This document shows positions 1-62,503 of a stretch of 62,503 nucleotides of DNA, in pieces. The DNA is taken from positions 1-62,503 of IMG/VR virus record IMGVR_UViG_3300027834_000006, one strand, 5' to 3'. The notes under the pieces were generated by a model. It saw only the letters and a program-made list of their open reading frames with translations. It did not search any database and was not told the origin of the DNA. Position 1 is the stretch's first letter; each line of letters opens with the position of its first letter. This stretch comes from a virus. Lineage: Duplodnaviria; Caudoviricetes. A program made the translations under genes and the position numbers.

Positions 1-127
1 CCGGTGGTGTCTTGAGCAATCTGACGTTATCTATGCATATTTTTGCCGGGGTATCGCCGGACGCCCTTGAATTACCCTTGAGACTGACACGGAATGTACT
101 GATAGCACTCCAACCGGTAGGGCTTCC
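1..127. repeat. 127-bp exact terminal direct repeat, left copy (circular assembly overlap)
   Basis: Bases 1-127 are identical to 62377-62503; the length equals a common assembler k-mer and an ORF reads through the junction in frame. Confidence 0.95.
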
Positions 128-1012
128 CACCAGTCTGAACCACGCTCTCTGGATTCTCATGTTGAACATCTGATTGTCCAGTGGGTTCACATTCCATTTG
201 GCATTAAACGTCGTCTGATGAGGATGAAATAAGTTCCATGTTTCCCCGCTGGGCAGTGTTGTTGTGGGTGTTGAAATAATCGTACATGAATAATAATTTG
301 TCCACCCACCTGACGTAAGATCCAGTGTTATCTCTGATATGGCATCTTTATTGAATCTGAATATATCTAAGGCAATGAAATCGGAATCCGACGCAGTAGT
401 ACCATCCTTGAAAGTGTTTAGGTTCAGTGTGGCTGATTCCATTGCCGTGATACTATATGTGAGAGTCGTGGTTTCACCATCGGTTTCCTGCGTCAAATAG
501 AGAGAGCCAGACCCTTCAAGTCTATGAAGAGGGCTCTTGTCTATACCGGCCTCACTCGTTCCCGATCCACCCTTAGTCCATTCGGCAGTCTCATCGCATC
601 TGTTTATAACACGTTCAGCATTGGGGTCGGGCAGTCCGGCTTTAAACACATAGTTCTCATCGGTATCTCCAGACGATGACCTGGGACGCAATTGCAACAC
701 ATCATGTTCGTAATTGCTGTAATACACCTTATCCAAAAACCGCACTAAGTCACCAGGTGTTATACCTGTTATTGACAAAGCTGCACTCGTTACGGCATCT
801 ATCAGGGTGGTGCTTTCCCATGTTCCACCTGAATCTTTGACAAACTTAATGATCGTTTGATTCGTGGTGGTGGATGTGTGCCCGGTAACGGCGAATAACG
901 TGTCTACATACTCAGATGCGCCACTGGCTTCGGGATAGAATTTGCTGGTATCCGTATGGTAGAACTTAAATAGAGATGTTACATCTGCGCTTGAATCGTT
1001 TATTACGCCCAT
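1..1012 (-). CDS. 5' part of tail nozzle/tubular-B (P22 gp10-like) protein spanning the circular junction
   Basis: ATG at 1012 (MGVINDSSADVTSLFKFY...) is open to base 1 and in frame with ORF 59606..62395 (position 19 = 62395; 993 nt = 331 codons), giving about 1260 aa. Missing from the ORF track. Confidence 0.8.
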   Translation of the reverse strand, partial: MGVINDSSADVTSLFKFYHTDTSKFYPEASGASEYVDTLFAVTGHTSTTTNQTIIKFVKDSGGTWESTTLIDAVTSAALSITGITPGDLVRFLDKVYYSNYEHDVLQLRPRSSSGDTDENYVFKAGLPDPNAERVINRCDETAEWTKGGSGTSEAGIDKSPLHRLEGSGSLYLTQETDGETTTLTYSITAMESATLNLNTFKDGTTASDSDFIALDIFRFNKDAISEITLDLTSGGWTNYYSCTIISTPTTTLPSGETWNLFHPHQTTFNAKWNVNPLDNQMFNMRIQRAWFRLVGSPTGWSAISTFRVSLKGNSRASGDTPAKICIDNVRLLKTPP

Positions 1013-1024
1013 GGCTATGTTATC

Positions 1025-1918
1025 CTATGGTCTGTATTCGCCTTTTCTTATCTCCGACATCTCGGCTGTAGTCAGCATGTCTTTCATGACTCCCCACTCA
1101 TCCATCAATCCATCGAAATAAGAAGAGCCACCAAATTTTCCAATAGTGAAATCAGCAGACGACGGCGACATATCGCCCGCCGCAGTATCCGTTCCCTGGT
1201 CTATCAAAGCACTTGTAGCCACATTCCATATATACATGCTCATTCTGTTGTTACTGGCCTGATATGTCGCGCACACCCAGTACCAGGTTGCCAGGGATAA
1301 CTCTGCCGTAAGCGCTAGCGTTGAAGCTGCACAACCACCATTATATCCGATCTTTAACTGACAGGTACCTGCTGACATAACAACGGTGCCGAATGTTCTG
1401 TCGGCGGTCGTTCCTCTATGTTTACAGCATAAACCCGCGTCTCCCCCCACCCTATATGATTCTATTTTGAAAAAACCGAATAGAGAGAAGTCGGTTTCTG
1501 CTTCCCCCTTTTTACCGGGAAATCCTGCATCGAGATTGGTGTCTGTTATAGTAAGATATGCGGAATCATCCCTTTCCAGATCAACCGCATAATCTCCCTC
1601 TGATACATCTGCGGTAGTATAAACAACAGTGCCACTGGACGTTAGGTGGTTACCGCCGATTGTGTCATTGGCGTTATTCTCGAATCTCCAAACCGCTACA
1701 CAGTTGGGATCTCCAGAGAAATCATTGCCTGTCGGAGCTGCCGTAATGGATCCAGTAAAAACAAACTCGGTAATTCCTTTCCTGGTTTCCAGGGATTCTT
1801 TTTCTGGTATATAGTTTTTCAATTTCTGAAAAAAACCGCTTGGCAATTGAGGCTCGGAAGCATCCCAGTCTTTATTTAGGGTATACGGTGGTGAAATATT
1901 TATGTAGTGATACTTCAT
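1025..1918 (-). CDS. LamG/concanavalin A-like virion protein with nozzle-like N-terminal segment
   Basis: CVAVWRFE start and W.W.CATY / IG...FDGLMDEW LamG-type motifs; the N-terminal ~55 aa (KNYIP..ETRKGI.EF) are shared with 1932..2810. Confidence 0.75.
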   Translation of the reverse strand: MKYHYINISPPYTLNKDWDASEPQLPSGFFQKLKNYIPEKESLETRKGITEFVFTGSITAAPTGNDFSGDPNCVAVWRFENNANDTIGGNHLTSSGTVVYTTADVSEGDYAVDLERDDSAYLTITDTNLDAGFPGKKGEAETDFSLFGFFKIESYRVGGDAGLCCKHRGTTADRTFGTVVMSAGTCQLKIGYNGGCAASTLALTAELSLATWYWVCATYQASNNRMSMYIWNVATSALIDQGTDTAAGDMSPSSADFTIGKFGGSSYFDGLMDEWGVMKDMLTTAEMSEIRKGEYRP

Positions 1919-1931
1919 TTGATTATTTTTT

Positions 1932-2810
1932 CTACAACACCCTGTTTCTAATGCTGTCTATTTTGGCTATAATATTGTCTTGTGTGGCAGGCACTCCCTT
2001 TAAAACGATATAATCATCTATTTCTGCCCTACAATTATCATACCCTATCTCAAAATAGTCCGTGTCGGATTTAAGTCCCAGTCCATACCAAGTACCCGTG
2101 TGCGTGTTGTGTTCTGCATAAGGACCATCCGTATAGCGATACAGCCTCATGCCACACGTAGATAGGTCTTGAGAGTTCCATAATCCGATATGATACCATT
2201 TTTCCGTATTCACCTTGGCCGTTGACTCAACAAATGTTGGGTCGCCACCATCGTTCTCTATACTGAACTGAAGTTTTATGCCTGATACGGCGGCTGTGAT
2301 TGATCTCAGGTTAATTGCCCCGGGCTGTCCTTCCGGCGCTTTGTTGGTAAAATAAATATGATCGCCACCCCAGTCTATATTGACCCAAAAGCAAATCATG
2401 AAGTTGCGTGATCCCACACCCGGGAAGTCGGCCCTTAAAGCGGTGTTGGCTTTACGCAGATAATTTCCGCTCCCTGTAAAAGCATCGGTGTGCATAGAAC
2501 CCGATCCTTCCATGTACGAAGCAGAAGCGGACGGGGCTCCAACTTTATCCATGTAGTCGTTGCCGTTGATCTCACAGTTTCTTAGAGTACCTGTACTTTC
2601 CATTCTCAGCCACATTACACAGTCAGGATCATCTGCTGGATTATATACACCACCTGAAAAGAAAAATTCAGAGATGCCCTTTCTTGTTTCAATTACATGC
2701 TTATTGGGAATATAGTTTTTGAACTCAGAAAAGCTTCCGGTAGGATGAGGAGAAGTGTCACTCCCCGCCTTATCTAGGGAAAAGGGCGACATGATGGGCA
2801 GGTAACTCAT
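1932..2810 (-). CDS. LamG-like virion protein, paralog of 1025..1918
   Basis: DPDCVMWLRME, KWYHIGL and AEIDDYIV motifs; shared N-terminal KNYIPNKHVIETRKGISEF. Confidence 0.7.
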   Translation of the reverse strand: MSYLPIMSPFSLDKAGSDTSPHPTGSFSEFKNYIPNKHVIETRKGISEFFFSGGVYNPADDPDCVMWLRMESTGTLRNCEINGNDYMDKVGAPSASASYMEGSGSMHTDAFTGSGNYLRKANTALRADFPGVGSRNFMICFWVNIDWGGDHIYFTNKAPEGQPGAINLRSITAAVSGIKLQFSIENDGGDPTFVESTAKVNTEKWYHIGLWNSQDLSTCGMRLYRYTDGPYAEHNTHTGTWYGLGLKSDTDYFEIGYDNCRAEIDDYIVLKGVPATQDNIIAKIDSIRNRVL

Positions 2811-2814: not shown

Positions 2815-3447
2815 TTAATCCGCCGCAGATTGGTTTGCTATGCTTTGCTTTATACTATTAACCATAAATTTGGTGGTAATAGTAGCCAGGATTCCTCCTA
2901 GTTCCTCATCATATTGCTGAGCAACCGCTCCAGCTAATTCAAAAGACCTCCGCTTCTGATATGCCTTATACGTTGCATATAAAGGTACTAGATGGTGGTA
3001 ACAGCCAGGAATGCCCAAAGTCCCTGCCGCCGTGCATCCTTGCTCAACCAGAACCAGGGGTTTAAGCGTATATATCGCAGTGGGAACTGGTGTAATTATA
3101 AACTGTCTCCCCCAGTCAGACCATTTCATCTCACTTGCATCGCCCACTCTTCCTATGAGATCAGGAGTAATGTATTGAAGAGCAATGTTCGCAGATGATA
3201 TAATGGTTTTTATGGCTATGGTCTCAATGGCTGTGGCATTATAAGTCGTGGGATATGTGTATTCGGCACAGTTAACCACAGTAGCGATAGCCGTACAGAG
3301 CACCTGACTACACATTGTCTTGAGACTGATGTCCCGTACCCCATCATCTATGAACTCGTTTATTTCTACATCCGTGAAGAAACGCGCTACGGGTTCAGCA
3401 ATCAAACTTCGTGTTCTTGAACGACATGCTGTTCTGGTAAGGCTCAT
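2815..3447 (-). CDS. head-tail adaptor / tail tubular protein A-like
   Basis: F..EINEFIDDG..DI N-terminus, EYTYP, I.PVP, and H.LV.LYA.YKAY.K helix; position before the nozzle gene. Confidence 0.6.
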   Translation of the reverse strand: MSLTRTACRSRTRSLIAEPVARFFTDVEINEFIDDGVRDISLKTMCSQVLCTAIATVVNCAEYTYPTTYNATAIETIAIKTIISSANIALQYITPDLIGRVGDASEMKWSDWGRQFIITPVPTAIYTLKPLVLVEQGCTAAGTLGIPGCYHHLVPLYATYKAYQKRRSFELAGAVAQQYDEELGGILATITTKFMVNSIKQSIANQSAAD

Positions 3448-4903: not shown

Positions 4904-5695
4904 CTATCCTCCCATTGCAAAAGACAATCCAGTGTTCAAGCCCAACCCGAGATTGCCTCCCTCATTATAATTGTAAGTTCCTTTTCTGACTTTTTCAATA
5001 TCACCTATTGATTTTTTAACATTCCAGACAACCACTTCGTCGAGATATGCGTTTGCGTGAAGGCCGGGATTGCCGGTAGCACCTAGAGACACCGACGCGG
5101 ATTCCAGTGAAATTGTTTCCGCGAAAGTTCCGGTCAATGGGGCGCCCAAGGCCGCGCTAGCGTTGTCGTCGTAAACACAAATAAAATAAGTTTTATCAGA
5201 TGCTCTGTAACCAAAACCCACATGATACCAATTAGTGGCATCACAACTAACTGAAAAATAATCGCTTTCACTAGATGCCCCGCCATTATATCCTATAAAT
5301 ATAGATATCTTGTCGCTTGTTGCTTCACCTCTAATCATCAAAGTGCGACCATTAAATGAATAGTCATACTTACATAACAACGCATAATTCTTGACAGCCA
5401 CGCTTGGTTTAACGTCAAAATAACACCAGAAACACCCTGAAATATCCGTTCGTGTGCTTGTTCCGTCAGATTGTTTGAGGGGAAATCCCGTATCTAGCGC
5501 AGTATCGGCAATATGCATATAGTCGGAATTCGCCCGAATAAACCTGGCGGACTGATTGCCTTCTTTCTTGATGATAAGTTCTGGGTCGGCACCGACGTTG
5601 GTCAGAGTGTTCGTTCCCTTGGAATCATCCGTGATCCCGGCTGTCTCAAATCTCCATACCGCAACACAATTATTGTCGTGAGAAAAATCATTCAT
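4904..5695 (-). CDS. LamG-like protein, third paralog
   Basis: DNNCVAVWRFE, NWYHVGF and YLDEVVVW; strong similarity to 1025..1918 (D..LD.GFP, IGYNGG, RKG.Y). Confidence 0.75.
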   Translation of the reverse strand: MNDFSHDNNCVAVWRFETAGITDDSKGTNTLTNVGADPELIIKKEGNQSARFIRANSDYMHIADTALDTGFPLKQSDGTSTRTDISGCFWCYFDVKPSVAVKNYALLCKYDYSFNGRTLMIRGEATSDKISIFIGYNGGASSESDYFSVSCDATNWYHVGFGYRASDKTYFICVYDDNASAALGAPLTGTFAETISLESASVSLGATGNPGLHANAYLDEVVVWNVKKSIGDIEKVRKGTYNYNEGGNLGLGLNTGLSFAMGG

Positions 5696-12766: not shown

Positions 12767-14059
12767 TCATACAGGGATATGCAGGCAATCTGTGGCCCAT
12801 TTTTTTATAGAATTAATGGGATAACAAGAACCCTCTATGAGCATTTCCTTGTAGAAATTATATGTTTCTAACTTCGGGCATTTGTCTATGGCCCTCTTCA
12901 AACAATCCCTGGCGGCAACAAAATCGCCCAATTGTCTATGTGCTAAACTCTGTAATCCCAAAAAACTACCCTCGCAATAATCGACATCTTCGGACTGATT
13001 CATTTTCCACTCACCAGAGAGATCCAATGCTTCATTGTATCTTTTATTTTCCAGAAGATAATGAACATATCGAACCAGCAAAACATTGCTAAAATAAGTA
13101 TACTTTTTTAACATGTCTCTACTACTATAGGTATCTAGGCTGGGAAAATGATTCATTTGTATATCTTTTATGTTGGCAATGAGAAGATCGTTTTCGTCAA
13201 GGGCACCAGCAATCTCTTCCCGCGATACCCCATCCAAACGCATGTCTGCATCGGGATTCTCCGATAAAAGAAAAAACATACACTTCTTATGGCCTGCATA
13301 GTCGAAAGAGTCCACTTGGAACCCGCACCGTGCGGCCAATGATTTGAATGTCCTGTATGAAAAAGTATAATTATGTGCAGATGACAAAAAGGCATCGGAC
13401 GCAATAAGTGGATACGGAAACATAACCGATGGTACTTCAACCAATGCCTGTCCCCCATCGTTCAAAAGCAAACGCACCGACTCCAATGTTTCGCCGGGAT
13501 CATACATGTGTTCTATAACATTACACATCACAACCAAATCATATTTTTTGCAATCTTTGTGGTCCTTGTGAAATCTGCCATGTTCAACCTCAATGCCATT
13601 GACCTTCATTGCCAATTCACAACTTCTCCTGTCGGGGTCCATACCGTATACCTCTGCTCCCATACTGCGCATACCCCTCATAAGCGTCCCCATACCGCCC
13701 CCAATCTCCAACACGGATTTCCCCTTCAGGTCATACCCGATTTCCTTCAACCAGTCCAATGTGTATACTGTTGTCATAACTCCATCCACAACCGCTGTAC
13801 CGGGAATTCCCGCTTGCAGTCTCGACTTGTATTTCATGGCGTAATCTTTGTCGTAAAAATCACGCTGGGTTTCCCTTGTCATCATTGGATTTTTGTATAC
13901 CATCCCGCAATCATCGCACACCACGTCTGTCTTATGATAAACCCTACCGTCTTCATCGTCTATAAAAACCAATGGCTGCCATGGTTTCTTGGTTCTTAGG
14001 GTAGAGCAACAAGAACTCCCACATATGATACAATCCCTGGTTTCTTCTTCGTATTTCAT
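12767..14059 (-). CDS. class I SAM methyltransferase with N-terminal Zn ribbon and C-terminal TPR-like helices
   Basis: CIICGS/CDDCG, VLEIGGGMG, YDLVVMCNVIEH.YDP and VEVP; architecture common in glycan-biosynthesis clusters; start at 14059 overlaps the upstream stop (ATGA). Confidence 0.8.
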   Translation of the reverse strand: MKYEEETRDCIICGSSCCSTLRTKKPWQPLVFIDDEDGRVYHKTDVVCDDCGMVYKNPMMTRETQRDFYDKDYAMKYKSRLQAGIPGTAVVDGVMTTVYTLDWLKEIGYDLKGKSVLEIGGGMGTLMRGMRSMGAEVYGMDPDRRSCELAMKVNGIEVEHGRFHKDHKDCKKYDLVVMCNVIEHMYDPGETLESVRLLLNDGGQALVEVPSVMFPYPLIASDAFLSSAHNYTFSYRTFKSLAARCGFQVDSFDYAGHKKCMFFLLSENPDADMRLDGVSREEIAGALDENDLLIANIKDIQMNHFPSLDTYSSRDMLKKYTYFSNVLLVRYVHYLLENKRYNEALDLSGEWKMNQSEDVDYCEGSFLGLQSLAHRQLGDFVAARDCLKRAIDKCPKLETYNFYKEMLIEGSCYPINSIKKWATDCLHIPV

Positions 14060-14700
14060 TTGAGTCTCCTTGAGGTTATGTGTCGAATAAACTGCTTTCC
14101 TATGAATTCTGTATACGCCGGAGGAATACATTCCTTCAAACCCTTAAAGTCCATCCAGTCAATTCCATACGCAAGAGGAGCATTTTTTATTGTTTTTGGC
14201 AAAATTCCAAGTTTTTTTCTTAATTTTCTGCTTGCCTGACTTGCTGTTGTCACCAATAGTGGAACCTGAGCATGATTACACTGCATCGCTACTTCAACGG
14301 GGAAAGATGTCTCAAAGTATCTATGCCTTTGGCAGCGCAAGCCAAACATTGATCCGCACAGCATTATAGGATCGTTAAGCTCTTTTTTTGCTCCAGCGAC
14401 ATTCTCAATGATATAGTGCTTCATGGATCGTATAAGCTTTTGCCTGACACTATTAATTGATTTTTCATGGTTGCCTCGAAATTCTTTAGGTGTTAAATGA
14501 CTATATGCTTGGCACGGTGGACTCGCGTGGATCACATCAAAGCCATCGAGCGGAAAATTCAAGGCATCTGCCAGATAAAATTCAAAAGGGTATCTCGGTT
14601 GGGGTTCATTATCTACACCAACAATTTCAAAGCCCGCCAAGTCATACCCCATGGAAGCTCCCCCAGACCCACAATATAAGTCTAATAATTTCAACTTCAT
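14056..14700 (-). CDS. DNA (cytosine-5) methyltransferase, short phage type
   Basis: LLDLYCGSGG (motif I), ASPPCQ (catalytic PC), IENV and QRHRYFE. Confidence 0.85.
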   Translation of the reverse strand: MKLKLLDLYCGSGGASMGYDLAGFEIVGVDNEPQPRYPFEFYLADALNFPLDGFDVIHASPPCQAYSHLTPKEFRGNHEKSINSVRQKLIRSMKHYIIENVAGAKKELNDPIMLCGSMFGLRCQRHRYFETSFPVEVAMQCNHAQVPLLVTTASQASRKLRKKLGILPKTIKNAPLAYGIDWMDFKGLKECIPPAYTEFIGKQFIRHITSRRLK

Positions 14701-14764
14701 TATATTCTCCCCATGTTGACCCTATGTCCTCCTCTTATGGTATTTTTTATGCAAACAATAGTTT

Positions 14765-15916: not shown

Positions 15917-16160
15917 CCATCCTTTCTTCGTAGTTTTTCTGCAAATTATTCCAAAAATCTTCAGACATTAAAAAAACCAACGAAAGAGAGCGTGCTATTT
16001 CTGGAGAAATAGGGTCTTTCCCGGACAAAATGTCATCGATTACAACAGGATGCAGTCTCATGCGAATAGCCAACTTTGCCCGCGACATATTATATGTTTC
16101 CAAAACTTCTCTCAATGTCTCACCTGGATGTATTGCCATCGGCGCTTTATAGTTGCTCAT
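15909..16160 (-). CDS. higA: HigA-family XRE HTH antitoxin-like protein (orphan)
   Basis: AIHPGETLRE, LA.RM, IL.GK..ISPE.A..L and FW.NLQ.NY signature. Confidence 0.85.
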   Translation of the reverse strand: MSNYKAPMAIHPGETLREVLETYNMSRAKLAIRMRLHPVVIDDILSGKDPISPEIARSLSLVFLMSEDFWNNLQKNYEERMGD

Positions 16161-16173
16161 AATCTCCTTTCAA

Positions 16174-16233
16174 GCTTGTTTATAGGTCAAGCCATGAATA
16201 ATTAGCCTGGCTTGTTTACAGATCAAGCCAGGA
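16174..16233. repeat. tandem pair of 24-bp palindromic repeats GCTTG-N9-CAAGC at the terL 3' end
   Basis: 16174-16197 gcttgtttataggtcaagccatga versus 16210-16233 gcttgtttacagatcaagccagga. Confidence 0.8.
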
Positions 16234-17988: not shown

Positions 17989-18581
17989 GACGGCGTCTCC
18001 ACTTCTATTGTGTCTGCTCCCTCGCGTATTTCTTCAAAGATTTTCTCACGTTCTTTTTTGTTCTTACCGGCGGTGAAACTATCGATGTATTTTTTTATGT
18101 CCAACGCCATCTTTGCGAGAATGGACTCGGGTACTTTATGCGAACAAAACATGGAATTAATCTCATTCGCCAAAGCCGCCATGGTTTTAACGTCGAGCAA
18201 TGAAGTTGAACCCAGAAGATAAATGATTATCTGTCGTTTGACAGCCGAATCCAGATCGGGTCTTTTCAATATAGCAACCATCCTGTCAAAGCGAAACTTC
18301 TCGGTATCCCGCAACATCTTCATTGCCATGTTTGTGGTGGTCTCAAAGTCCTTGTGGGCTACTGAAATTCTTGGGGCATTGTTCTTGGGGCTTTTAGATA
18401 TTGAATAATCATCACCCAACATACTATATTTATAGCCTTTGCGCATCTTACTAAACATCTTCTCCTTACACTCCTTGCAAATACGTTCGCCCCTCTCCCT
18501 TGAAGATAGAAACACATTGTTTTCATCGAGAGTCCTTCCGCATGCCTTGCATCTTTTTTCAGTCTGCATTTTCACCGCCAT
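17973..18581 (-). CDS. possible terminase small subunit, Zn-finger protein
   Basis: Overlaps the terL start; CKACG..CKEC; assignment by position only. Confidence 0.35.
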   Translation of the reverse strand: MAVKMQTEKRCKACGRTLDENNVFLSSRERGERICKECKEKMFSKMRKGYKYSMLGDDYSISKSPKNNAPRISVAHKDFETTTNMAMKMLRDTEKFRFDRMVAILKRPDLDSAVKRQIIIYLLGSTSLLDVKTMAALANEINSMFCSHKVPESILAKMALDIKKYIDSFTAGKNKKEREKIFEEIREGADTIEVETPSWEKE

Positions 18582-20499
18582 TCAATAGGGTTTTACTGTT
18601 TTTATAATTGTCGCTGATCCCATCCCCTATGAGGTCGTATAGGATTCTCAATCCATAGAAAAACTCAAAGATCTTCAACAGTTGGGCTATTTCTTTCTCC
18701 TCTCCATCACAGTAATCACCCAAACATCTTAGAACATTCTCTACCCCCATGCACCAGGACTGGATTACATGCATCGTAGCAAAATAGCACATCGGGTCAT
18801 GGAGGACTTCCATTCTAACCTTATTGGCGTAGCCGAGCAACTGCTGACGACCCGTTTGATCCAGATTCCCATCGTTATACATGCCGAACCCTTCCTCGCA
18901 ATCCACTAAAAATCTATCAATTGCAGCCCTGCTCCTGTCAATATAATCCCTTCCCTTGACAATCTGTGTATCAACCTTTTTTCTATCGCAATCTATTTTC
19001 TCTTTATCAATAACCAGCAGGCTGTCCAGAGTTTTCATGGGAGAGAACACTTCGTCCATATGCCTATTGATGGCATCTCGAAGAGGCATGATCTCTGTGC
19101 CCCTGATCAGAGCCCCACCCTCAGTGGCATTTATGCAAGTACCTTTCCAATTTGCTATGTCCAGCTCAAACCGTTTCAGCATTCCCACCCAAGTTTCCAG
19201 GGATTCAAGTTTTTGCCCGTTGTTCCCCATTACACTGGTTCTTTGCTGAATCAAAGGCGACCCCTTAAGGCCACTGCTGGCATGATCGGCGCCCTTCACA
19301 TGAGTCTTGCCGTCTGGAGCAAAAGCCAAATCCTGTCCTACCAATATGATCGGATCACATCCCATGAATACCGCCATCTGAAACGCCATATTGGTTACTG
19401 ACTTTCCCGTATTAAGAATACCCTTATCAAGATCCAACCATTTGAAATGTGCGAAATCACGAAACACAATCATCTTCTTCCCATGCCATTCATCGTAAAC
19501 CTGCGGCTTCACTACCGGACAAGCACCCAGCCACATCTGTTTCATAAATGCTTTTTTGTCGTCGGAGATCTGTTTGAAATGTTTACATGTGGTCAGATTT
19601 CTTTCAAGAGAACATACTATGTCTGGTATGATGGGAGTCTCATAATTAAAAAAGGTATTCAAGGATGCATCAGCCGCAAAAAATACTGCCCTGTCTTTAA
19701 TCTCGGGCAACAAATGAATGTTGTTGTTGAGTGATGGACCGGTGGCAACTATTACCGCAGGTTTTTCCTTGAATTGATCCCTTAACAAACCAACGCCGGG
19801 ATTGCCAATTATCGTTTCCATGTTCAGCAGCATATTATCTATTCCAGACCAGCTATCCAGGGGGTCATTGCCGTATGAACTCCTTATGTCGAAACATATT
19901 CTTTTGATTTCAGAACATGCTCTTTTATAATATTCTTTATTGAAACGAATAAGTATGGGATGTTCCACAAAATAGAATGAAGTGAATAGATTTCTCGCCA
20001 TGTCATTGATGAGACTGTATAGATGGTGATAAATATTGTTGGGGTCTTCTCCAACCACAAACCTTATGGCCGGATGTTCAAAAATACCAAACTTCTCGCC
20101 TCCGCTTGAAGTCAGATGTAATGCCCTGTTTTCTATAAATTTTCTGAATAACTGTATGTCATTCTCAATGACAATAAATAGGCTGGTTTTACCGGAAAAC
20201 TTATGGATGATATTGGCGAGTTCATAGCCCATCCCCACGCCCAACACAACCACCACGGCAGGCGACTGAATGTCTTCGGATAAAACCGAATCTACAAAGA
20301 ACCTTGCTTGCCCCGCCGGATCATCCTTGGAATGAATCAACCACTGCTGCCCTCCACGCTGAACAGTGCATGTGCATTCGTCTGCTTTATTGCTGGGCGC
20401 CACCTTTACAGAGTAATCATCGTTCATTCCCTTCATTTTTTCAACAATATGCGGATAGTGTTTTCTCAGTTGTTCCATGTTCACATCAATTATGCTCAT
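18559..20499 (-). CDS. maf: Maf (motility-associated factor, DUF115/MptE-like) nonulosonate glycosyltransferase
   Basis: IHSK.DP, LGVGMGYE, IVATGPSL..N, AADAS, PDIV.SLER, GKSV.NMA..A..MGCDPIILVGQDLAF, CINATEGGA.I.G; 646 aa with helical C-terminus. Confidence 0.85.
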   Translation of the reverse strand: MSIIDVNMEQLRKHYPHIVEKMKGMNDDYSVKVAPSNKADECTCTVQRGGQQWLIHSKDDPAGQARFFVDSVLSEDIQSPAVVVVLGVGMGYELANIIHKFSGKTSLFIVIENDIQLFRKFIENRALHLTSSGGEKFGIFEHPAIRFVVGEDPNNIYHHLYSLINDMARNLFTSFYFVEHPILIRFNKEYYKRACSEIKRICFDIRSSYGNDPLDSWSGIDNMLLNMETIIGNPGVGLLRDQFKEKPAVIVATGPSLNNNIHLLPEIKDRAVFFAADASLNTFFNYETPIIPDIVCSLERNLTTCKHFKQISDDKKAFMKQMWLGACPVVKPQVYDEWHGKKMIVFRDFAHFKWLDLDKGILNTGKSVTNMAFQMAVFMGCDPIILVGQDLAFAPDGKTHVKGADHASSGLKGSPLIQQRTSVMGNNGQKLESLETWVGMLKRFELDIANWKGTCINATEGGALIRGTEIMPLRDAINRHMDEVFSPMKTLDSLLVIDKEKIDCDRKKVDTQIVKGRDYIDRSRAAIDRFLVDCEEGFGMYNDGNLDQTGRQQLLGYANKVRMEVLHDPMCYFATMHVIQSWCMGVENVLRCLGDYCDGEEKEIAQLLKIFEFFYGLRILYDLIGDGISDNYKNSKTLLNGGENAD

Positions 20500-20523
20500 T
20501 CAGTATCCCCTAATAAAGATATT

Positions 20524-21558
20524 TTATGTTCCAATCATACAATCAGCCCCATTATAGACCACAATATTCGCTTCCTTGCCATAAACATTTTTTACATGCA
20601 AAAGAAATTCCTTCATTTCTTTGCACAATAAAACGCTTACGTCAAAATATTCCTGAATAGCTTCGTAAGAAACTTTATCTGTAACAAACGCCAGTGTTTT
20701 ACAGTACAATTCTTTTTCAAAGATACCATCATACGTAGCCGGGGTCAGGCCATTGGGCTGTTGAAATAAATAATGCACTCCTATTCCCTCCGGCATGGGA
20801 CTCCAGATACAAATCGTTCCTCCATTACGGACCACACTTTTGTTCTTGCAAACCTGCAAGGCATTCATAGACTGAAGAAAATCAATATTCTTGAACAGGG
20901 GAATTAGAATAGCAACATCCATATTATCACGTATGCATACCTCGTAATTTTGTTTAACAACACCAAAAACCTGTTCCCTGACCAACAATGGATCGCCCAC
21001 AAAGAGATCGACCACCTCCCCCTTATCATTAATAACAGAATTCACCAAAACATCTACATAGCGTACAGATTCCGTCATAGAATCCTCAATGCAATCCCCG
21101 GAAAAACCGTGAAAGTCCTGCACGCTTTTATAGTCGGACAACCCGGGACAGATTATTTTACCCCCGCCGCTGATCCCGGCATGAGTATGCGGCAATGCAG
21201 TGCCTACGGCTATAACATAACCCGACAAGGGAAACCGCCTAAGAGGATTGTGGTGATACACCCTTAATTCACTGGCAAAAAAACCCAACCGTCTTTCCAT
21301 GACTCGCATAGAAGCAGCCTGGTGCATGCCCGACGCCACAACAACAACAGTCTTATCAACACCTACTCTCTGCACGACATAATCCACAACACAGAACGCA
21401 ACGTGTGTATCGGGTCGAGTTAAGTCATCAATGACAATAGTGATTGTTTCATTGCTGGGCAGTGAAATCCAGCTTATCCTATCGTATACTTCCTGATTAG
21501 ACAATTGCTCTGCGGTTCCATCGCCCATTTTTACTTCCGTAATGTTAAACATAGCCAC
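20524..21558 (-). CDS. LarA (lactate racemase) superfamily racemase/epimerase
   Basis: IDDLTRP, ASGMH, HHNP and PHTHAGISGGGKIICPG match LarA D.TRP / G.H / PH..AG.SGG.K...PG; C-terminal GGTI....PEGIG. Confidence 0.75.
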   Translation of the reverse strand: MAMFNITEVKMGDGTAEQLSNQEVYDRISWISLPSNETITIVIDDLTRPDTHVAFCVVDYVVQRVGVDKTVVVVASGMHQAASMRVMERRLGFFASELRVYHHNPLRRFPLSGYVIAVGTALPHTHAGISGGGKIICPGLSDYKSVQDFHGFSGDCIEDSMTESVRYVDVLVNSVINDKGEVVDLFVGDPLLVREQVFGVVKQNYEVCIRDNMDVAILIPLFKNIDFLQSMNALQVCKNKSVVRNGGTICIWSPMPEGIGVHYLFQQPNGLTPATYDGIFEKELYCKTLAFVTDKVSYEAIQEYFDVSVLLCKEMKEFLLHVKNVYGKEANIVVYNGADCMIGT

Positions 21559-22198: not shown

Positions 22199-22811
22199 TG
22201 TTTCCTCCTATATCGTGTTTCATTTTATGGTATATGTACCCCTTGCCCAAAAATCTGTTGGTTATCCATCCTCTGCCCATACACGGGAACACCCATACCC
22301 CGTTGGTTGACTCTATCAATTCAGTACATCTGTGCCTTGGAACATCACGGCTCTCAAAAAGGTTGGATAGTTTGGCGGGTACAACATAAGAAATATAGAT
22401 ACCCCCCGTTTTCATTACCCCACAAACATTCCTCCATATCAGTCTCAGTTCATCCCGGTCAAAGTGTTCTTCCAGGCCATAAGAAAACACCAGGTCAAAT
22501 GTTTTTTCCTCATAGGGAAAAGGCTTGAGAACATCTCCCTTTTTAAAATTGTTAATCAACCCGCTAAAAAGTTCACGTTGATCCATCTTATGGGCTTGAA
22601 CTTCATAGAGCTCAAACATGGTAGATATTGTGGCACGACCGCAGCCTATCTCCAGGGATTTTTTCCCTCTAAGATTTTTATCGAGAGAATATTTTTCGTA
22701 CAGTTTCTTCATAACATCAAAGTTCTTAACAAATGGATCTATGTCAAACGGCGCCTTGCCGCCTCCGCGCTTATCCCAAAACTTTGCCCATCCATTATTT
22801 GAAGAGTTCAT
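22167..22811 (-). CDS. class I SAM-dependent methyltransferase
   Basis: LEIGCGRA, GDVLKPFPY..TFDLVFSYGLEEHF, MKTGG. Confidence 0.8.
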   Translation of the reverse strand: MNSSNNGWAKFWDKRGGGKAPFDIDPFVKNFDVMKKLYEKYSLDKNLRGKKSLEIGCGRATISTMFELYEVQAHKMDQRELFSGLINNFKKGDVLKPFPYEEKTFDLVFSYGLEEHFDRDELRLIWRNVCGVMKTGGIYISYVVPAKLSNLFESRDVPRHRCTELIESTNGVWVFPCMGRGWITNRFLGKGYIYHKMKHDIGGNNGKCNGFSNG

Positions 22812-23970
22812 TTATTTTTTCTCCTATTTTAATTCCCGCCATACCATCTCCATAAAGAGAAGAAGCAGGATAACCATCAACCGAAAACTGACGTTCTACG
22901 GCATTCACGATAGACCCCGCATCACAATCAACACTTATGACGTTTTTGCCATGCTCCCTACCCTTTTGCCTGTTCCCTATATTAACAGCCGGGACACCCA
23001 AAAAAGACGCTTCTCTTATGCCGGTAGAGCTATTCCCAATTATGCCTTTGCTCTTCAACAAAAGCGCCCCGAAGTCAGCCGGATCGATATGGCGAATAAA
23101 CTGTATGGGAAAATCTCGATGACGCGATACTTCCATCCTCCACATTTTTGCTATAGCTTCGCCACCGGGGTCTATGTTATTCCAAAAAACAATCTTTGAG
23201 ATCTCAATTCTTCTAATGGCTTCGGAAAATTCCTTCAGATTATGCAAGAAATTATCATCTTTGGTGTCTGCATGATACAATACAATAACGTAATTATAAG
23301 AACACACATTAACGCGATCTCCGGTTCCGCGAAGTTTTAATAGGTTGTTTAAATATCGGGGCAATTTATCAGTTGTGGTATATCTGCCCTTTTTTGAATC
23401 CTTGTTTCCTATATGCTCATTGTCACACAACAAATCCATCGAAGGGCATCCGAAACAATATACATTTGAATGATCGTCGGGTTTCATTTTGTGGATCCGT
23501 TTCTCAGCCGCTTTGGTAGCAGGGAAATGAATATCGGATAACTGAGTGACCGCGTTTCTAACCTTATCATCAATGCTCCCGGTTTTTTCACCGCCCTGTA
23601 AATGTATCAAGGGAATATTGACATAAGAAGCCGCAGTTGCCATAGCCAACACTTCAAACCTATCGGCTATAACCAACACCGCATCTGGTGTAAGTTCCTT
23701 CAAAATAGTCGTGGCCTCTATGATTCCCAATCCTACAGTCAAAGACATCTTTTCAAGTCCATCCCCCTCCACGGCAAGTGCAATATCATGAGTGGCAATC
23801 CCCGGGAAATCCCAATACATATCAGCAGACGCGTTCCCATATTTATAAAGACGCATACTGCCCCCCAGGACCAAATGTACTTCAATGTCGGTATCTTCCC
23901 GGAAGTATCGAATAATCGTTTTTACCTTATTGTACGATGATCTATTCGTTATCAATATTGCAATTTTCAT
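22795..23970 (-). CDS. neuC: hydrolysing UDP-GlcNAc 2-epimerase (NeuC/LegG family)
   Basis: T.RSSY, ADRFE.L, IPLIHLQGGE.TGSIDD..RNAVT.LSD.HF, GCPSMD, IGNSSTGIREA, NIG.RQ.GRE and LYGDG. Confidence 0.9.
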   Translation of the reverse strand: MKIAILITNRSSYNKVKTIIRYFREDTDIEVHLVLGGSMRLYKYGNASADMYWDFPGIATHDIALAVEGDGLEKMSLTVGLGIIEATTILKELTPDAVLVIADRFEVLAMATAASYVNIPLIHLQGGEKTGSIDDKVRNAVTQLSDIHFPATKAAEKRIHKMKPDDHSNVYCFGCPSMDLLCDNEHIGNKDSKKGRYTTTDKLPRYLNNLLKLRGTGDRVNVCSYNYVIVLYHADTKDDNFLHNLKEFSEAIRRIEISKIVFWNNIDPGGEAIAKMWRMEVSRHRDFPIQFIRHIDPADFGALLLKSKGIIGNSSTGIREASFLGVPAVNIGNRQKGREHGKNVISVDCDAGSIVNAVERQFSVDGYPASSLYGDGMAGIKIGEKINELFK

Positions 23971-25730
23971 TTTTTGTCTGATCCCCCATTTGCTATCTTG
24001 AGAAGCTCACTATCAGAAAGTTTGTAATCCATTGGTATGAGAATTTCCTGCATTTTCGAACCTTCACGGTACATTGTAACGCCTTTCACTTCATGTAAAT
24101 GCTCCAGCAATAAACCCCCTAATTCATCGCAGGGAAAATCTTTCTTCAGTAATATGGTTTTTGAAATTGCACTGTCAATATATTGCTGAGCAGTTATCTG
24201 TACCTCCATGTGTTCTCTGGGAGAAATATCATATCCCCCTACAAAATACTCATGCGGCTCGCCTTTGATTATCTTCTCCCTGAATAATTCATCCATCTCC
24301 ACCACCGAAGCCATCTCTGATTTACCATCATTATTATTGGCATTGTAATGTCTCTTGTAGATAGGACAAAAAATGGGTTCAACACCATTGGAAACTCCGG
24401 CAACAATTGAAGTTGTACCAGTCGGTTGCATGGAGAGTATGGTTCCGTTTCTAAGACCATATTTCTTGATACCGGATCTGATTCTTCGTGGAAGCCGTTT
24501 GACAAATTCTCCCTCCAAATGTTTCTCGGCATTAAATTTCTCAAAGGAACCTCTTTCTCGGGCCAATCCAATCGAAGCATTGTAGGCATAGTCTCTGATA
24601 TTCAGAAAAAGGGAATCCATGAACTCAAGGCTTTTTTCTGAACCGTATTCCTCTATGCCCATCTTCAGCATCAAGTAATGGAGGCCCATAACCCCCAGGC
24701 CGATCTGTCGGGTTTGATGGGCATTGAGCTCTATGGTGCTCAGGGGATAATGTGAAATATCCAAAACATCATCCAGGAACCTGACTGCAAGCCCTATAGT
24801 GCGTTCCAATTTATTCCAGTCTACGTCACTGGTTTTTTCGTCATACATCTCAGATAGGTTAATGCTACCCAAACAGCACGATCCGTATACGGGAAGCGGA
24901 ATCTCTCCGCATGGATTAAGCGTATAAACATCATGGACATACCACAAAGGATTATACCTGGCGATAGTATCCAAATTAATAAGCCCGGGATCTCCGCAAT
25001 CCCATAAATTCTTGACTATATAATCCCACAATTCCACCGCCTTTACTGTATCATACACCTTGTTCTTAAAAACCAAATCCCATTCCTGATTGTTCTTAAC
25101 AGCTTTCAGGAATTTATCCGTTATGCCTATGGAGATATTGAAGTTCTGGAGCTCTCCCTCTTCTACCTTACTGCCAATAAACTTGTATATTTCTGGATGA
25201 TCGATCCGCAGAATTCCGATACATGCTGCTCTTCGTTGTCCTCCCAATTCTACGGTAGATAGGATCGAATTCAGTGCCTTCATAAATGACACCACCCCTG
25301 AAGAGCAACCGCCCTTACCGACAATGGGAGTGCCGACAGGTCTGAGGTTGCTGAAATTTATTCCAATGCCTCCCCCGGTAGAAGAAATCATCAATGCATC
25401 CTTGTATAGCTCTGCTATGCTTTCTATATTATCATCTACGCCCAGCGCGTAGCAATTGATGAGCATCCCTTTGTTCCTGCTGGCATTTCTCAGCACCCTT
25501 CCCCCTGGAACAAAAAGGGAATCGGTCATAATTTTCTCGAACTCTGCGATTACTTTCTCGTCCTCTCGCAGTCCCACTGCCTTGGCAACCCGATTGCAAG
25601 CAGTTTCCCAGAGCTTTTCGTTCTTATCGAAAGCATAACGTAAATCAAATATCTTCTTCCTATATCCCGTCAAGTCTGTGGCTCCGTCAAGCATACACTC
25701 ATCAACACTACAATCAACACATTCGACCAT
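23967..25730 (-). CDS. nrdJ: class II (adenosylcobalamin-dependent) ribonucleotide reductase
   Basis: PGGRVL, NCY, GGGIG.NFS.LRP, NPCGEIPL..CCLGSINL, GLGVMG, QPTGT.S, GVEP and DSAISKT; no beta-subunit gene recognised. Confidence 0.88.
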   Translation of the reverse strand: MVECVDCSVDECMLDGATDLTGYRKKIFDLRYAFDKNEKLWETACNRVAKAVGLREDEKVIAEFEKIMTDSLFVPGGRVLRNASRNKGMLINCYALGVDDNIESIAELYKDALMISSTGGGIGINFSNLRPVGTPIVGKGGCSSGVVSFMKALNSILSTVELGGQRRAACIGILRIDHPEIYKFIGSKVEEGELQNFNISIGITDKFLKAVKNNQEWDLVFKNKVYDTVKAVELWDYIVKNLWDCGDPGLINLDTIARYNPLWYVHDVYTLNPCGEIPLPVYGSCCLGSINLSEMYDEKTSDVDWNKLERTIGLAVRFLDDVLDISHYPLSTIELNAHQTRQIGLGVMGLHYLMLKMGIEEYGSEKSLEFMDSLFLNIRDYAYNASIGLARERGSFEKFNAEKHLEGEFVKRLPRRIRSGIKKYGLRNGTILSMQPTGTTSIVAGVSNGVEPIFCPIYKRHYNANNNDGKSEMASVVEMDELFREKIIKGEPHEYFVGGYDISPREHMEVQITAQQYIDSAISKTILLKKDFPCDELGGLLLEHLHEVKGVTMYREGSKMQEILIPMDYKLSDSELLKIANGGSDKK

Positions 25731-56591: not shown

Positions 56592-56594
56592 AGT

Positions 56595-59605: not shown

Positions 59606-62503
59606 TTAAGGTGAATACTCCGAATCTTCTTCGGGTTGAATCTTCATTAGCATTTGTGTTATTTTATGCCTACCGACTCCATCTACCTTTACGCCCAGGT
59701 GTGTTCCAACTGCCCCCTGAGAGCTCTTTTCCGCATAAGTCTTTACATTAGTACTGGTCGCAGTAATAACGGATAGGGTCGCAGTGTGGGACTGATCAGC
59801 ATATATCGTGGGGGTGAGCGTTGCATTTGCCGTACCCAAGTTAGCTGTGGACACATAGAACGCTCTCATAAACTTATCATACTGAATGCCCGGCGTAGAA
59901 AAATCTTTGGTCTGGAGTATGGTGGAGATTGCCGTTCCATCATCATCTTCACCATCGAACATCTTATATATCTTTCCACTACTCCTACCGTAATAGACAT
60001 CGTTGTAATCTCCGCTACCATCCCATTTGCAGATCGATCTGACATCAAAAGGCCCGGTTAATTCAGAGAAAGTTCCCTCGTCAAGCTTGCAGACTATGGC
60101 ATCGCCAGTGCCCGCATCTGAGAAGTTATAGAAAAGATAATAGAATTTATCTATCATAACACCTACGGCAGTACTCAACTCGGTTTCAGTATAGTCTTCG
60201 AATAAAGAATTGATAGGAGCAAAAAACCTATCATTGACACTTGATATATCCCCTATCATAAGACCATCTCTTGATAACCATATAATCCCGTAGTCCGACA
60301 CAACAATACTTCTTCTGGCAATGTTTCCCTTGCTACTTCTCTTGACCGGAGTAGACAATCCCCTGGCCGTAGTCCACATAGAATCAGAGGTCCAAATAAC
60401 GATATGATTGTAGTAATCGGCCAACCCCGTTATTCCACTACCTTTTTTCTCTGGTATATCAATGCAAGAAAAATCGCTCACCCGGAAGGGACAAAACGCC
60501 TCACTCTTATACATACGATACGGTATCTTATTGTCAAACCTATCTACCACATTACCGTAGTACATGCAGTTGGCAATACTGGTCATCACCTTTGCTTTGG
60601 GTGGGGCGTAGGCATCCGGGGGCATTATAAGGCCCGTATCTTCATCGCTCACTTTGTCTACGAGTTTGGTCGCATCCGGGGCCATATCGGCCACATGCTT
60701 CCATTCCGTAGACATGCCTCCTATCCGGTAGATTCTCTTGTTCTTGACACGCTTCAAATCATGCTCAGATGGTGTGTATATCTTGGTTAAAACAATATCT
60801 TTCCTGTCAACTTTCCTGACTATAGACGGTTCCGAAGAAGAAGATAGAAACCCTTCATCGTCTTCCATTAAAAGCTTATAATGATATGATCCCTTCAATG
60901 CTCCTTCTTTTATCATTACCAAATTATCCACAACGATAGTTGCTTCTCCGCCATTCGATGTGACTTCTATGGACCACCCACGAACGCTTGTTAAGTCCGG
61001 CGCCGCCGAATCATGTTTGACCGCAATCATGTCGCTTCGTTTCCAGGAAAATACAGACGAAGGCCATCCGCCCCTATCCTTGCCGAGATACCTTATGGCA
61101 TTTGAAACAAATTCTTTTACTTCACCGGCTTGATTGGGATTCGTAAGTGTACCATACAACGTGGCAAGATCTTCTTTCCTGTTTTCACCGTCAGAATTAA
61201 AAATCTGTGTTATCGAACCCATTGTCTCTTCGGTCTCTTTGTCCTGCTTGGCTTGCTCACGAAGTTTGGCTGCCATTTCTTGCCCATGAATAGTGTATTC
61301 ATAATAACTATCCCTATTGAGCGCACCCCCAACATCTCCATGAATCTTAATGGTTACATCCTGAACGGTTTTGATATCCGGGGATGCTATCCACATTTCG
61401 AACTTATCGCTGGCTCCGGCTGTTATCTCCACGAATTCCACAACTCCCCATTTATTGGGGAAGTCCCATTCGGGAGGCCATAAAGCTTCGGCCACTTTAT
61501 AGGTGGTCAAATCGATTGGCTTCGCTGGATAGTGAAAAGTGATCCCAAAGGTCTTGCTACCATACGCTGTTAACCGGCACCCGGCTATACCTATAGAGGA
61601 ATGTTCGTAGTCAGGATATTGTTTATGGCCCATTCCATAGGTCTGATATTTGAGAGAACTCCATAGCCATTTTGCCGCTTCTCCAACCATTTCAACAAGT
61701 TCCCCATAATCTTTCAGTACTGCTCCCAAAAAGGTTGAGCCTGCATCGATAGCATACAAACCTAATGGCTCGAATGTATCCACCGGCATCATAACTTCCG
61801 GTCGTTCAAGTCTCATGTCATCCACATAATAGGGTTGTATTGTACCTGCCAGACCATCGGTTGAACTGGGTCCGAAAACGTGAATCCTGGTAATGTCTGT
61901 CCAGTCTGGAGCCGCAGTAACGGCAGCGCTCCAGGGAGCCACCCCTGATTCCGGTCTAAATCGTACGCTCAATTCGGCTCCTCCTCCTTTGAGGGAGGCA
62001 ACCACTCCCATATTAACAGACCGATACGCGTTTGCTGAATCGTAAAACCTGAACTTGGGGCATTTCCATAGGTTCCATGCAGTCCAATTCCCTACCGCTA
62101 TTCCCTTCCACGACAAGTTGATCTTGAGCACATCAGAGGTTGTGGCTGTAACACCGTCGGGGAACGTAGCCAGATCTTTGCCGCTGTCAAAAGTAAGTGC
62201 CTCACATGCAGTGCCCGTAGTATCAGGTGAAACTTCCAGGCAATACACTCCTTCCCTCGCCAGGAATGAGTTGAATGTAGATTTTGTTCCAGCCGCGCAG
62301 TTCTTGATCCAACCCGTACTCGACCCTGATTCCTGGGGCTCAAAAGTAGCCCACTGACATCTATAAGACGTAGCTACCGGTGGTGTCTTGAGCAATCTGA
62401 CGTTATCTATGCATATTTTTGCCGGGGTATCGCCGGACGCCCTTGAATTACCCTTGAGACTGACACGGAATGTACTGATAGCACTCCAACCGGTAGGGCT
62501 TCC
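59606..62503 (-). CDS. 3' part of tail nozzle/tubular-B protein (continues from 1..1012)
   Basis: Beta-propeller-like C-terminus (GSGITGL, G.IARRSIV...GIIWLSRDG, TKDF..P...DK) typical of gp10-like nozzles. Confidence 0.75.
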   Translation of the reverse strand, partial: GSPTGWSAISTFRVSLKGNSRASGDTPAKICIDNVRLLKTPPVATSYRCQWATFEPQESGSSTGWIKNCAAGTKSTFNSFLAREGVYCLEVSPDTTGTACEALTFDSGKDLATFPDGVTATTSDVLKINLSWKGIAVGNWTAWNLWKCPKFRFYDSANAYRSVNMGVVASLKGGGAELSVRFRPESGVAPWSAAVTAAPDWTDITRIHVFGPSSTDGLAGTIQPYYVDDMRLERPEVMMPVDTFEPLGLYAIDAGSTFLGAVLKDYGELVEMVGEAAKWLWSSLKYQTYGMGHKQYPDYEHSSIGIAGCRLTAYGSKTFGITFHYPAKPIDLTTYKVAEALWPPEWDFPNKWGVVEFVEITAGASDKFEMWIASPDIKTVQDVTIKIHGDVGGALNRDSYYEYTIHGQEMAAKLREQAKQDKETEETMGSITQIFNSDGENRKEDLATLYGTLTNPNQAGEVKEFVSNAIRYLGKDRGGWPSSVFSWKRSDMIAVKHDSAAPDLTSVRGWSIEVTSNGGEATIVVDNLVMIKEGALKGSYHYKLLMEDDEGFLSSSSEPSIVRKVDRKDIVLTKIYTPSEHDLKRVKNKRIYRIGGMSTEWKHVADMAPDATKLVDKVSDEDTGLIMPPDAYAPPKAKVMTSIANCMYYGNVVDRFDNKIPYRMYKSEAFCPFRVSDFSCIDIPEKKGSGITGLADYYNHIVIWTSDSMWTTARGLSTPVKRSSKGNIARRSIVVSDYGIIWLSRDGLMIGDISSVNDRFFAPINSLFEDYTETELSTAVGVMIDKFYYLFYNFSDAGTGDAIVCKLDEGTFSELTGPFDVRSICKWDGSGDYNDVYYGRSSGKIYKMFDGEDDDGTAISTILQTKDFSTPGIQYDKFMRAFYVSTANLGTANATLTPTIYADQSHTATLSVITATSTNVKTYAEKSSQGAVGTHLGVKVDGVGRHKITQMLMKIQPEEDSEYSP
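62377..62503. repeat. 127-bp terminal direct repeat, right copy
   Basis: Identical to 1-127. Confidence 0.95.

Follow-up and report, generated by a model that had tools for sequence, protein, structure and literature searches.

A podophage tail nozzle lacking its canonical N-terminus, and the upstream proteins with lectin-like domains that carry the missing segment

In the virion of podoviruses, the nozzle forms a hexameric ring on the dodecameric adaptor. Canonical nozzles, such as P22 gp10, T7 gp12, the nozzles of Sf6 and SU10 and the muzzle of crAss001, are single chains with a beta-propeller core, and their genes follow that of the adaptor. Here we analysed the nozzle locus in a stretch of viral DNA of 62,503 nucleotides (nt; IMG/VR record IMGVR_UViG_3300027834_000006, hereafter the window). 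It resembles the canonical loci in propeller core and gene position. Unlike them, its nozzle protein of 1260 amino acids (aa) has no counterpart to their first ~46-54 residues, and we found this segment at the N-termini of two proteins with LamG domains that are encoded just upstream.

The platform domain of the SU10 nozzle is described as being formed from N- and C-terminal parts (accessible text of PMC9509320). The closest described case of a divided nozzle comes from the Pseudomonas podophage A1002, for which the accessible text of the report (PMC13730344, November 2026) describes a nozzle-rope protein, gp39, and a nozzle-base protein, gp42. According to that text, the detached piece in A1002 comprises the C-terminal platform and two incomplete blades and is the C-terminal portion of a rope protein of 620 aa onto which fibre dimers dock, while gp42 keeps a reduced platform-N (residues 3-43) and its propeller starts at residue 44. 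As far as the text goes, both cases have in common that a single-chain nozzle is partitioned into two polypeptides and rebuilt by added beta-strands, which in our case is predicted, that the detached piece is fused to the part carrying host recognition, and that the genes are neighbours. In contrast to A1002, the piece detached here is the N-terminal ~55 aa, it sits at the N-terminus of its carrier, and it occurs bare or fused to LamG in two to three paralogs per genome, as a comparison with gp39 and gp42 by description. The A1002 arrangement, with platform-C and propeller-C at the C-terminus of a rope protein that has a fibre-dock domain, is absent from our locus. The principle is shared with A1002; the split point, the carrier and the cargo are different. 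In our literature searches A1002 was the only split-nozzle paper found, and an N-terminal tag occurring bare or lectin-fused in several paralogs was not found.

Modular receptor-binding proteins (RBPs), such as T7 gp17-type fibres and Przondovirus tailspikes (PMC12692247), have, like the proteins studied here, a conserved N-terminal attachment, an exchangeable distal domain and several RBPs on one docking principle. The tag in the window differs from these classical fibre anchors because it is part of the fold of a core tail protein; it is homologous to the N-termini of unsplit nozzles and also exists free of cargo. The tailspike of the cyanopodophage Pan3 (PDB 9vyh chain p) is, as the proteins studied here would be, a small appendage of a podophage tail carrying a LamG-like jelly roll; the Pan3 nozzle (9vyg_M), however, keeps the N-terminal ~46 residues in its own chain.

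The two upstream genes, here called open reading frames (ORF) 1 and 2, and the nozzle gene lie on the minus strand, with the nozzle gene spanning the ends of the window:

1025..1918, minus strand: module-LamG protein 1 (ORF1), 297 aa, consisting of module, linker and LamG cargo
1742..1918, minus strand: platform-N module of ORF1 (residues 1-59), the detached nozzle N-terminus by homology and complex model
1025..1741, minus strand: linker and LamG/ConA-like beta-sandwich cargo of ORF1 (Laminin_G_3 32.3 bits; AlphaFold2 model)
1932..2810, minus strand: module-LamG protein 2 (ORF2), 292 aa (Laminin_G_3 30.6 bits; module hidden Markov model (HMM) E 1.7e-23)
about 2640..2810, minus strand: platform-N module of ORF2, with the LamG domain downstream of it
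1..1012, minus strand: 5' part of the nozzle gene, residues 1-337; its start corresponds to residue ~50 of canonical nozzles
59606..62376, minus strand: 3' remainder of the nozzle gene, which crosses the circular junction and ends with residue 1260; it encodes jelly-roll inserts together with the C-terminal propeller and platform
62377..62503: exact repeat of bases 1-127 at the end of the assembly, the sign of a circular genome

The preliminary description of this DNA had seen that ORF1 and ORF2 share an N-terminus of ~55 aa before divergent LamG domains. In our alignment, 26 of 56 positions (46%) are identical over the first ~59 residues, versus 47 of 214 (22%) in the remainder. When 1.84 billion representative proteins were searched with a profile made from five module sequences, 62 hits reached E<=1e-3. 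Four of them, PEGA-repeat or kinase proteins in which the match is internal and in several stretches, were dropped as false, while in all 58 that were kept (representatives at 50% clustering) the match starts within the first 15 residues. Since 58 matches, all of them N-terminal, were found among 1.84 billion representatives, the shared segment goes far beyond chance. By length, 17 representatives have 52-71 aa, 4 have 132-164 aa, 32 have 288-386 aa, 4 have 552-617 aa, and one is an unsplit nozzle. The residues N35, R46 and G48 of the module are invariant. Their spacing is that of the motif N.....G.L..R.G, which the preliminary description takes to be typical of the N-termini of P22 gp10/tubular-B nozzles; a distant relative with an unsplit nozzle (L007) has the full motif.

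The unsplit nozzle among the hits (P0044, 1348 aa) was found by the module profile alone, with an E-value of 1.3e-11. In BLASTP comparisons, its residues 4-55 match residues 1-52 of ORF1 with 46% identity (E 3e-14), and its residues 62-1346 match residues 4-1256 of the nozzle with 42% identity. Because both matches fit P0044, the ORF1 module and the nozzle tile one unsplit protein with ~6 residues between them. Moreover, a distant nozzle clade with 26-28% identity (L006, L007, L008, which equals L028, L025, L027 and P0020) is unsplit too. A module profile of 21 sequences was aligned by hhalign to template columns 4-57 of this clade with 90.1% probability (E 1.6e-6), and the five-sequence profile with 58.7% (E 9.5e-5), while the split-nozzle profile aligns to the same clade from template column 54. 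The evidence from this clade and from the solved structures, described below, is independent of P0044. Taken together, these computations show that the module is the nozzle's own detached N-terminus, homologous to the extreme N-termini of unsplit relatives, as had been proposed, and that the relatives with an unsplit gene that were to be compared do exist.

Bases 1-127 of the window repeat exactly, with 100% identity, at 62377-62503, and because of this repeat the window represents a circular assembly with a genome of 62,376 bp. The nozzle gene starts at 1012, where the protein begins MGVINDSSADVTSLFKFY, and continues through 62376..59606 to give 1260 aa. An uninterrupted copy, a 1260-aa ORF with 99% identity, is present in a metagenomic contig (L001:3055-6837, identical with P0001). 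An in-frame stop lies four codons 5' of the ATG at 1012, which rules out any extension of the ORF. The 16 full-length homologs (42-54% identity) share this Met as their start, without exception, and in-frame stops occur 0-13 codons upstream of the nozzle start in every locus. Owing to this common Met and the upstream stops, the short start is real and no calling error; the abrupt beginning of this gene had already been remarked on.

The nozzle, searched whole and in pieces, gave nothing in Pfam at E-values up to 10. Searches of PDB sequences by phmmer and hmmsearch with the nozzle, the outgroup profile and ORF1 gave matches at chance level only (ribosomal L11, polyomavirus VP1, and a pentraxin with E 0.02). 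Its C-terminal part matches genes of podophages annotated as 'phage stabilization protein' or 'internal virion protein' in seven records with 23-25% identity (tblastn), and the family phrog_511. An AlphaFold2 model of residues 1-1200, made with 17 aligned homologs, has a mean predicted local distance difference test (pLDDT) of 72 and a predicted template modelling score of 0.64, and is poor at residues 251-282, 540-575 and 732-769 and after 1146. Its Foldseek neighbours are a mix of enzymes rich in carbohydrate-binding modules (CBMs), propeller proteins and phage tails (SU10, crAss001, A4, GP4). In VIA-align, the model showed a seven-bladed beta-propeller core like that of the solved nozzles, with Z scores of 24.3 for Pa223, 23.4 for the crAss001 muzzle, 23.1 for SU10, 21.8 for VP1, 21.7 for Pan3, 21.5 for P22 gp10, 20.8 for Sf6 and 19.0 for GP4, that is, Z 19-24, these nozzles being its best matches; for Pa223, crAss001, SU10, P22 and Sf6 the root-mean-square deviations were 2.8-3.7 A over 274-411 residues. 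Generic WD40-type propellers also reach Z 19-20, so that the margin in favour of a nozzle is modest. The gene stands where a nozzle gene is expected, in the structural gene module after the adaptor and the two module genes.

In all eight phage nozzles or muzzles among the matches listed (11 of 50 rows), residue 1 of the model corresponds to chain residue 46-54; VIA-align gives the first and last aligned residues, and this is a statement about the boundary and not residue by residue. The model therefore begins where solved nozzles already stand at residue 46-54. In the nomenclature of SU10 and A1002, with whose descriptions this boundary agrees, the detached piece is the "platform-N" segment. 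Hence, of the proposal that the first propeller strands are supplied in trans, the separate supply of a detached N-terminus holds, while the piece itself is platform-N and not clearly propeller strands.

Between the N- and C-terminal propeller parts of the nozzle, about 700 residues (~130-830) are inserted, with several CBM-like beta-sandwich domains and a long helical hairpin at residues 702-768; the SU10 nozzle, too, has extra domains inserted in its propeller. The Foldseek neighbours include CBM22, GH101 and reelin repeats. In view of these neighbours and the CBM-like inserts, the nozzle itself may also bind glycans.

The complex was modelled from two nozzle chains (residues 1-135 and 827-1260) with the 59-aa module as partner, on alignments that we built ourselves. 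The interaction score derived from predicted aligned errors (ipSAE) was 0.85, 0.86 and 0.86, compared with 0.00 for the best of three controls; in the calibration, 58 of the 80 solved complexes and 2 of the 110 mismatched pairs attain the ipSAE mark. There were ~218 contacts, of which at least 91% agree between runs, and the pLDDT of the partner was at least 81. Nearly all residues of the module (1-57) contact the nozzle. The main nozzle contacts lie at residues 1099-1113, 1139-1166 and 1230-1252, together with a few N-terminal ones (2, 4, 57 and 64-68), and the interface of the best run comprises residues 1099-1113, 1132, 1139-1166, 1175-1199 and 1230-1252. In the window, this corresponds to:

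59633..60094, minus strand: predicted socket, nozzle residues ~1099-1252, from the complex-model contacts, with coordinates computed from residue numbers

The predicted contact region is where the platform's C-terminal part and the last blades are expected. The model supports a binding of the module to the nozzle without showing it, and as a reconstitution of a nozzle from two polypeptides the score (0.86 versus 0.00) has to be read with the caution that the halves of a split gene can pass by their likeness to single-chain nozzles. The preliminary description had named what would speak against a divided nozzle, namely a nozzle that is complete alone and a peptide with neither homology to nozzle N-termini nor a predicted interface. 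None of these points was borne out: we found homology, a predicted interface and an offset start of the nozzle.

When ORF1 was modelled alone by AlphaFold2 (alignment of 18 sequences), residues 60-297 formed a confident beta-sandwich with pLDDT mostly above 80, while residues 1-59 had pLDDT below 50 and no secondary structure, so the module is predicted to be unfolded by itself. Laminin_G_3 (PF13385, ConA-like lectin/glucanase superfamily) is matched above its cut-off of 27.6 bits by ORF1 and ORF2 (scores as listed above), and ORF1 has the beta-sandwich fold in addition. The fold neighbours of ORF1 in Foldseek are carbohydrate-binding and receptor-binding lectin-like jelly rolls, among them the carbohydrate-binding domain of the arabinanase AbnA (E 2.7e-9) and, at rank 9, the 269-aa Pan3 tailspike with template modelling scores of 0.55/0.60. 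In PHROGs, the sole match of ORF1 is 'minor tail protein', inside the LamG part. At E<=0.1, Pfam holds no family besides Laminin_G_3 and no known fibre anchor for it, though a distant relatedness to anchors may escape such a search. ORF1 had no tblastn match in 50,697 phage records; when residues 1-62 were used in a word-based search for homologs, nothing but the protein and its L001 copy came up, and a search for related loci with the five-sequence module alignment found only two viral contigs that were already known. A comparison of the module profile with the PDB gave only designed threefold beta-trefoils (Symfoil), in three weak repeats at module positions 4-26 only, each with an i-Evalue of at least 20 and a sum E of 1.5e-5, which we regard as spurious.

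The cargo varies among the representatives. Laminin_G_3 was reached at E<=1e-3 by 14 of the 40 longer true hits that were scanned, and the forms of 552-617 aa have one or two LamG stretches. One module protein adds an InlB B-repeat, and several cargos belong to no Pfam family. A third LamG paralog in the window (4904..5695) opens directly with its LamG domain and lacks the shared segment, just as had been noted before; its Laminin_G_3 score of 21.2 bits is below the cut-off. It shares 31% identity (72 of 231 positions) with the ORF1 cargo, has a Gly-rich tail at its end and sits between the head genes and the connector genes. Such a gene could be a reservoir of cargo cassettes.

We ran the module HMM and a nozzle HMM over all fetched loci. 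In all nine distinct split-nozzle contigs with readable upstream DNA, two to three module genes lie directly before the nozzle gene; left out of this count were L023, with only 91 nt upstream, and five loci without the 5' end of the nozzle gene. The lengths of the module proteins are:

window: 292 and 297 aa
L001: 292 and 299 aa
L005: 61 and 366 aa (L014, a second record, has these genes too)
L012: 58 and 320 aa
L013: 41 and 311 aa
L015: 54 and 314 aa
L016: 61 and 300 aa
L021: 310 and 352 aa
L022: 66, 314 and 350 aa

The short ORFs run from a start codon to a stop codon and are thus complete, so modules do exist as bare miniproteins of 54-66 aa. In the near-identical phages L013 (2625-2750) and L015 (444-608), the bare module ORF has 41 aa, due to an earlier stop, and 54 aa, respectively; the 41-aa form may be a sequencing error or decay.

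With the distant unsplit clade as its root, the nozzle tree shows the split nozzles as one group and P0044 as the sister of all of them (support 0.986), and because of this position one fission on the stem of the clade is the simplest history. The module tree is based on a short alignment with weak deep nodes. In this tree, the pair of modules from a single genome is divided between clades, the upstream module of the window grouping with the long genes of L012 and L023 and the downstream one with the bare 58-aa gene of L012, and bare and cargo-bearing states interleave. The separation of the paralogs and the interleaved states argue that the duplication of the module predates these phages and that cargo was gained or lost repeatedly. 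Two clean orthologous classes by gene position were not recovered from this tree, which is too short for deep nodes.

The window and L001 are near-identical phages, and their DNA identity along the locus is:

3' end of the adaptor gene: 95%
ORF2: 91%
ORF1 module: 86%
ORF1 linker: 77%
ORF1 LamG part: 44%
nozzle start: 92%

Between these two phages the LamG cargo cassette behind the module was cleanly replaced. Our computations show a clade in which the split is fixed, two or more module genes are kept and cargo can be exchanged.

We propose the following explanation. The ancestral N-terminal ~55 residues of the nozzle, platform-N, would have been detached by one gene fission; they are now located on separate genes just upstream of the truncated 1260-aa nozzle gene, and in the window each module runs through a short linker into a LamG/ConA-like beta-sandwich. 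During tail assembly, the unfolded module would fold by strand addition onto the C-terminal platform and the last blades of the nozzle and in this way rebuild a canonical nozzle at the adaptor-nozzle junction. The lectin-like domain would thereby be tethered outside the tail, most likely as a glycan-binding adhesin. The cargo would be exchanged by recombination at the boundary between module and cargo, and it is absent in some relatives, which have the bare miniprotein. The module proteins would be virion components at the adaptor-nozzle junction, with up to six per tail, and their LamG domains may point outward as glycan-binding adhesins with a role in receptor recognition. The invariant residues that contact the socket are identical in the ORF1 and ORF2 modules, which would therefore probably both use the hexamer's six sockets. 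We consider this explanation, with a split nozzle, a module that folds onto its platform and a lectin-like cargo tethered to the tail, to be quite probable as a whole.

Several other explanations were weighed against it. The module proteins might be transient assembly factors that act on the open platform and are displaced or not retained in the virion, with the LamG domain serving solubility or timing. Such a role would suit a module for which disorder in isolation and binding to the nozzle are predicted, and a chaperone-like protein could well be present as several paralogs in one genome. However, the segment is permanent in the unsplit relatives and the solved nozzles, nothing else in the locus could replace it, and diversification of cargo and cassette exchange are typical of surface parts for host recognition and not of chaperones; we regard this explanation as unlikely. 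Slightly less likely still, in our view, is that the shared segment is an ordinary RBP anchor, of the head-binding type of T7 gp17 or of tailspikes, on the surface of the adaptor or the nozzle, and that the nozzle is complete alone. The combination of a conserved N-terminus, a variable C-terminus and a cassette swap is the pattern of anchor-type RBPs, and SU10-type adaptors, to which the one here belongs, have a fibre-dock domain. Yet the segment is covalently part of the nozzle N-terminus in P0044 and the outgroup clade, the nozzle lacks the first ~50 residues of all eight solved nozzles among the matches listed, bare modules of 54-66 aa have no cargo to anchor, and Pfam shows no match to known fibre anchors.

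It is very improbable that the module genes are decaying leftovers of duplications of the nozzle 5' end and that the truncated nozzle works without platform-N. The shortened 41-aa ORF of L013 would fit such a decay, but modules are kept as intact ORFs with invariant N35, R46 and G48 in all nine loci, from about seven lineages, 58 representatives remain at 50% clustering, and the docking model is confident. The ORF1 stop (TAG; window 1013-1027) is in frame with the nozzle ATG and lies four codons before it, and frames agree also in L001, L021 and L022, which would allow module and nozzle to be joined in translation by stop read-through or recoding, so that the virion protein is unsplit. With 4 of 10 loci, though, the agreement is roughly what chance would give, the other loci overlapping or differing in frame, and a whole LamG domain would stand between module and nozzle, unlike in any unsplit relative. 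We rejected this idea on the frame agreement and hold it to be the least credible of all.

Some points weigh against the explanation of a split nozzle with tethered cargo. All support for it is computational, and docking and virion role are predicted or inferred. P0044 is a single sequence without genomic context, for which a secondary re-fusion or a calling artefact is possible, and the module HMM reaches E<=1e-3 in only three of the five distinct outgroup loci that include the N-terminus. Neither module nor nozzle matches any PDB chain at the sequence level. The structural comparison is at the level of boundaries, so supplied or missing strands cannot be named from it, and the nozzle model ends at residue 1200 and is poor beyond 1146. 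The complex was modelled from a nozzle cut into two chains and on our own alignments, unlike the set-up in which the tool was calibrated, and its score may mirror intrachain contacts of solved nozzles, because the chains are halves of a split gene with unsplit relatives in the PDB. The LamG assignment is only slightly above the Pfam threshold, and a lectin fold by itself is no proof of receptor binding, since a shared fold shows no function. Finally, six identical sockets leave at least two distinct module paralogs per lineage unexplained.

A tentative extension, which we would sooner doubt than accept, is that the six open platform sockets are a plug-in display in which the ring has to be occupied jointly by bare fillers and cargo modules from two or more paralog types that diverged anciently, for instance as A-B-A-B-A-B. 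Obligate co-occupancy would build a threefold pattern into the hexameric tail, and through the plug-in display the valency and identity of the lectin adhesin would be tunable by a cassette swap behind a tag of 55 residues.

A core tail protein that yields part of its own fold as an attachment tag for host-recognition domains would be a route to modular RBPs which is distinct from surface docking of fibres and has been described once so far, in another form (A1002). The system is compact and naturally diversified, with bare, single-LamG, double-LamG and other cargo forms and a cassette swap caught in the act. It opens strand-complementation assembly in phage tails and mixed occupants in 6-fold rings to testing, and it is a possible 'tag and socket' for showing chosen domains on podophage tails in laboratory systems. 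For annotation, the case is a warning: in this clade, nozzle genes have the look of N-terminal truncations, and the small ORFs that lie upstream of them are probably structural.

The window is a circular podophage genome. Most of its structural genes are on the minus strand, namely those of the portal, which is of the P22/SU10 type, the major head protein, the adaptor, ORF2, ORF1 and the nozzle, and the order at the locus is adaptor, ORF2, ORF1 and nozzle. The adaptor is of the SU10 type by its match to PF24175 at residues 14-188 (45.7 bits against a cut-off of 27, E 1.4e-11). Further features are:

2815..3447, minus strand: tail adaptor protein of 210 aa, whose gene immediately precedes the module genes (PF24175, SU10_adaptor)
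4904..5695, minus strand: third LamG paralog, 263 aa, without module

The regions at the starts of the tail genes are A-rich and without clear Shine-Dalgarno motifs. The guanine-cytosine skew changes its sign near 34 kb and 50 kb, which fits a plus-strand block at ~35-49 kb, and no tRNA genes were found in a scan of the whole window.

A run of sugar-modification genes lies within the phage genome at 12767-23970 on the minus strand. It encodes an MptE-like/Maf-type glycosyltransferase-like protein (18559..20499; PF01973, E 7e-40), a UDP-GlcNAc 2-epimerase (22795..23970; E 2.6e-52), an S-adenosylmethionine methyltransferase with TPR (12767..14131) and a Lar_N-domain protein (20524..21558), and a ribonucleotide reductase gene (23967..25730) adjoins it. 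This run might serve a nonulosonic-acid-type glycosylation of virion or host proteins.

Downstream of the nozzle gene, at 55556-56591 on the minus strand, two tandem paralogous genes encode Gly/Ala-rich proteins of 189 and 170 aa that belong to no Pfam family. The pair contains a repeat of 263 nt with 77% identity (55806-56068 and 56347-56609), and L001 carries the same pair. In the distant relative L007, a 1768-aa protein is encoded directly upstream of the unsplit nozzle, and the gene order differs from that of the window. After the tail genes, at 50164-54255 on the minus strand, the window encodes a Lys/Glu-rich protein of 1363 aa with no significant family, which is probably an internal or ejection protein.

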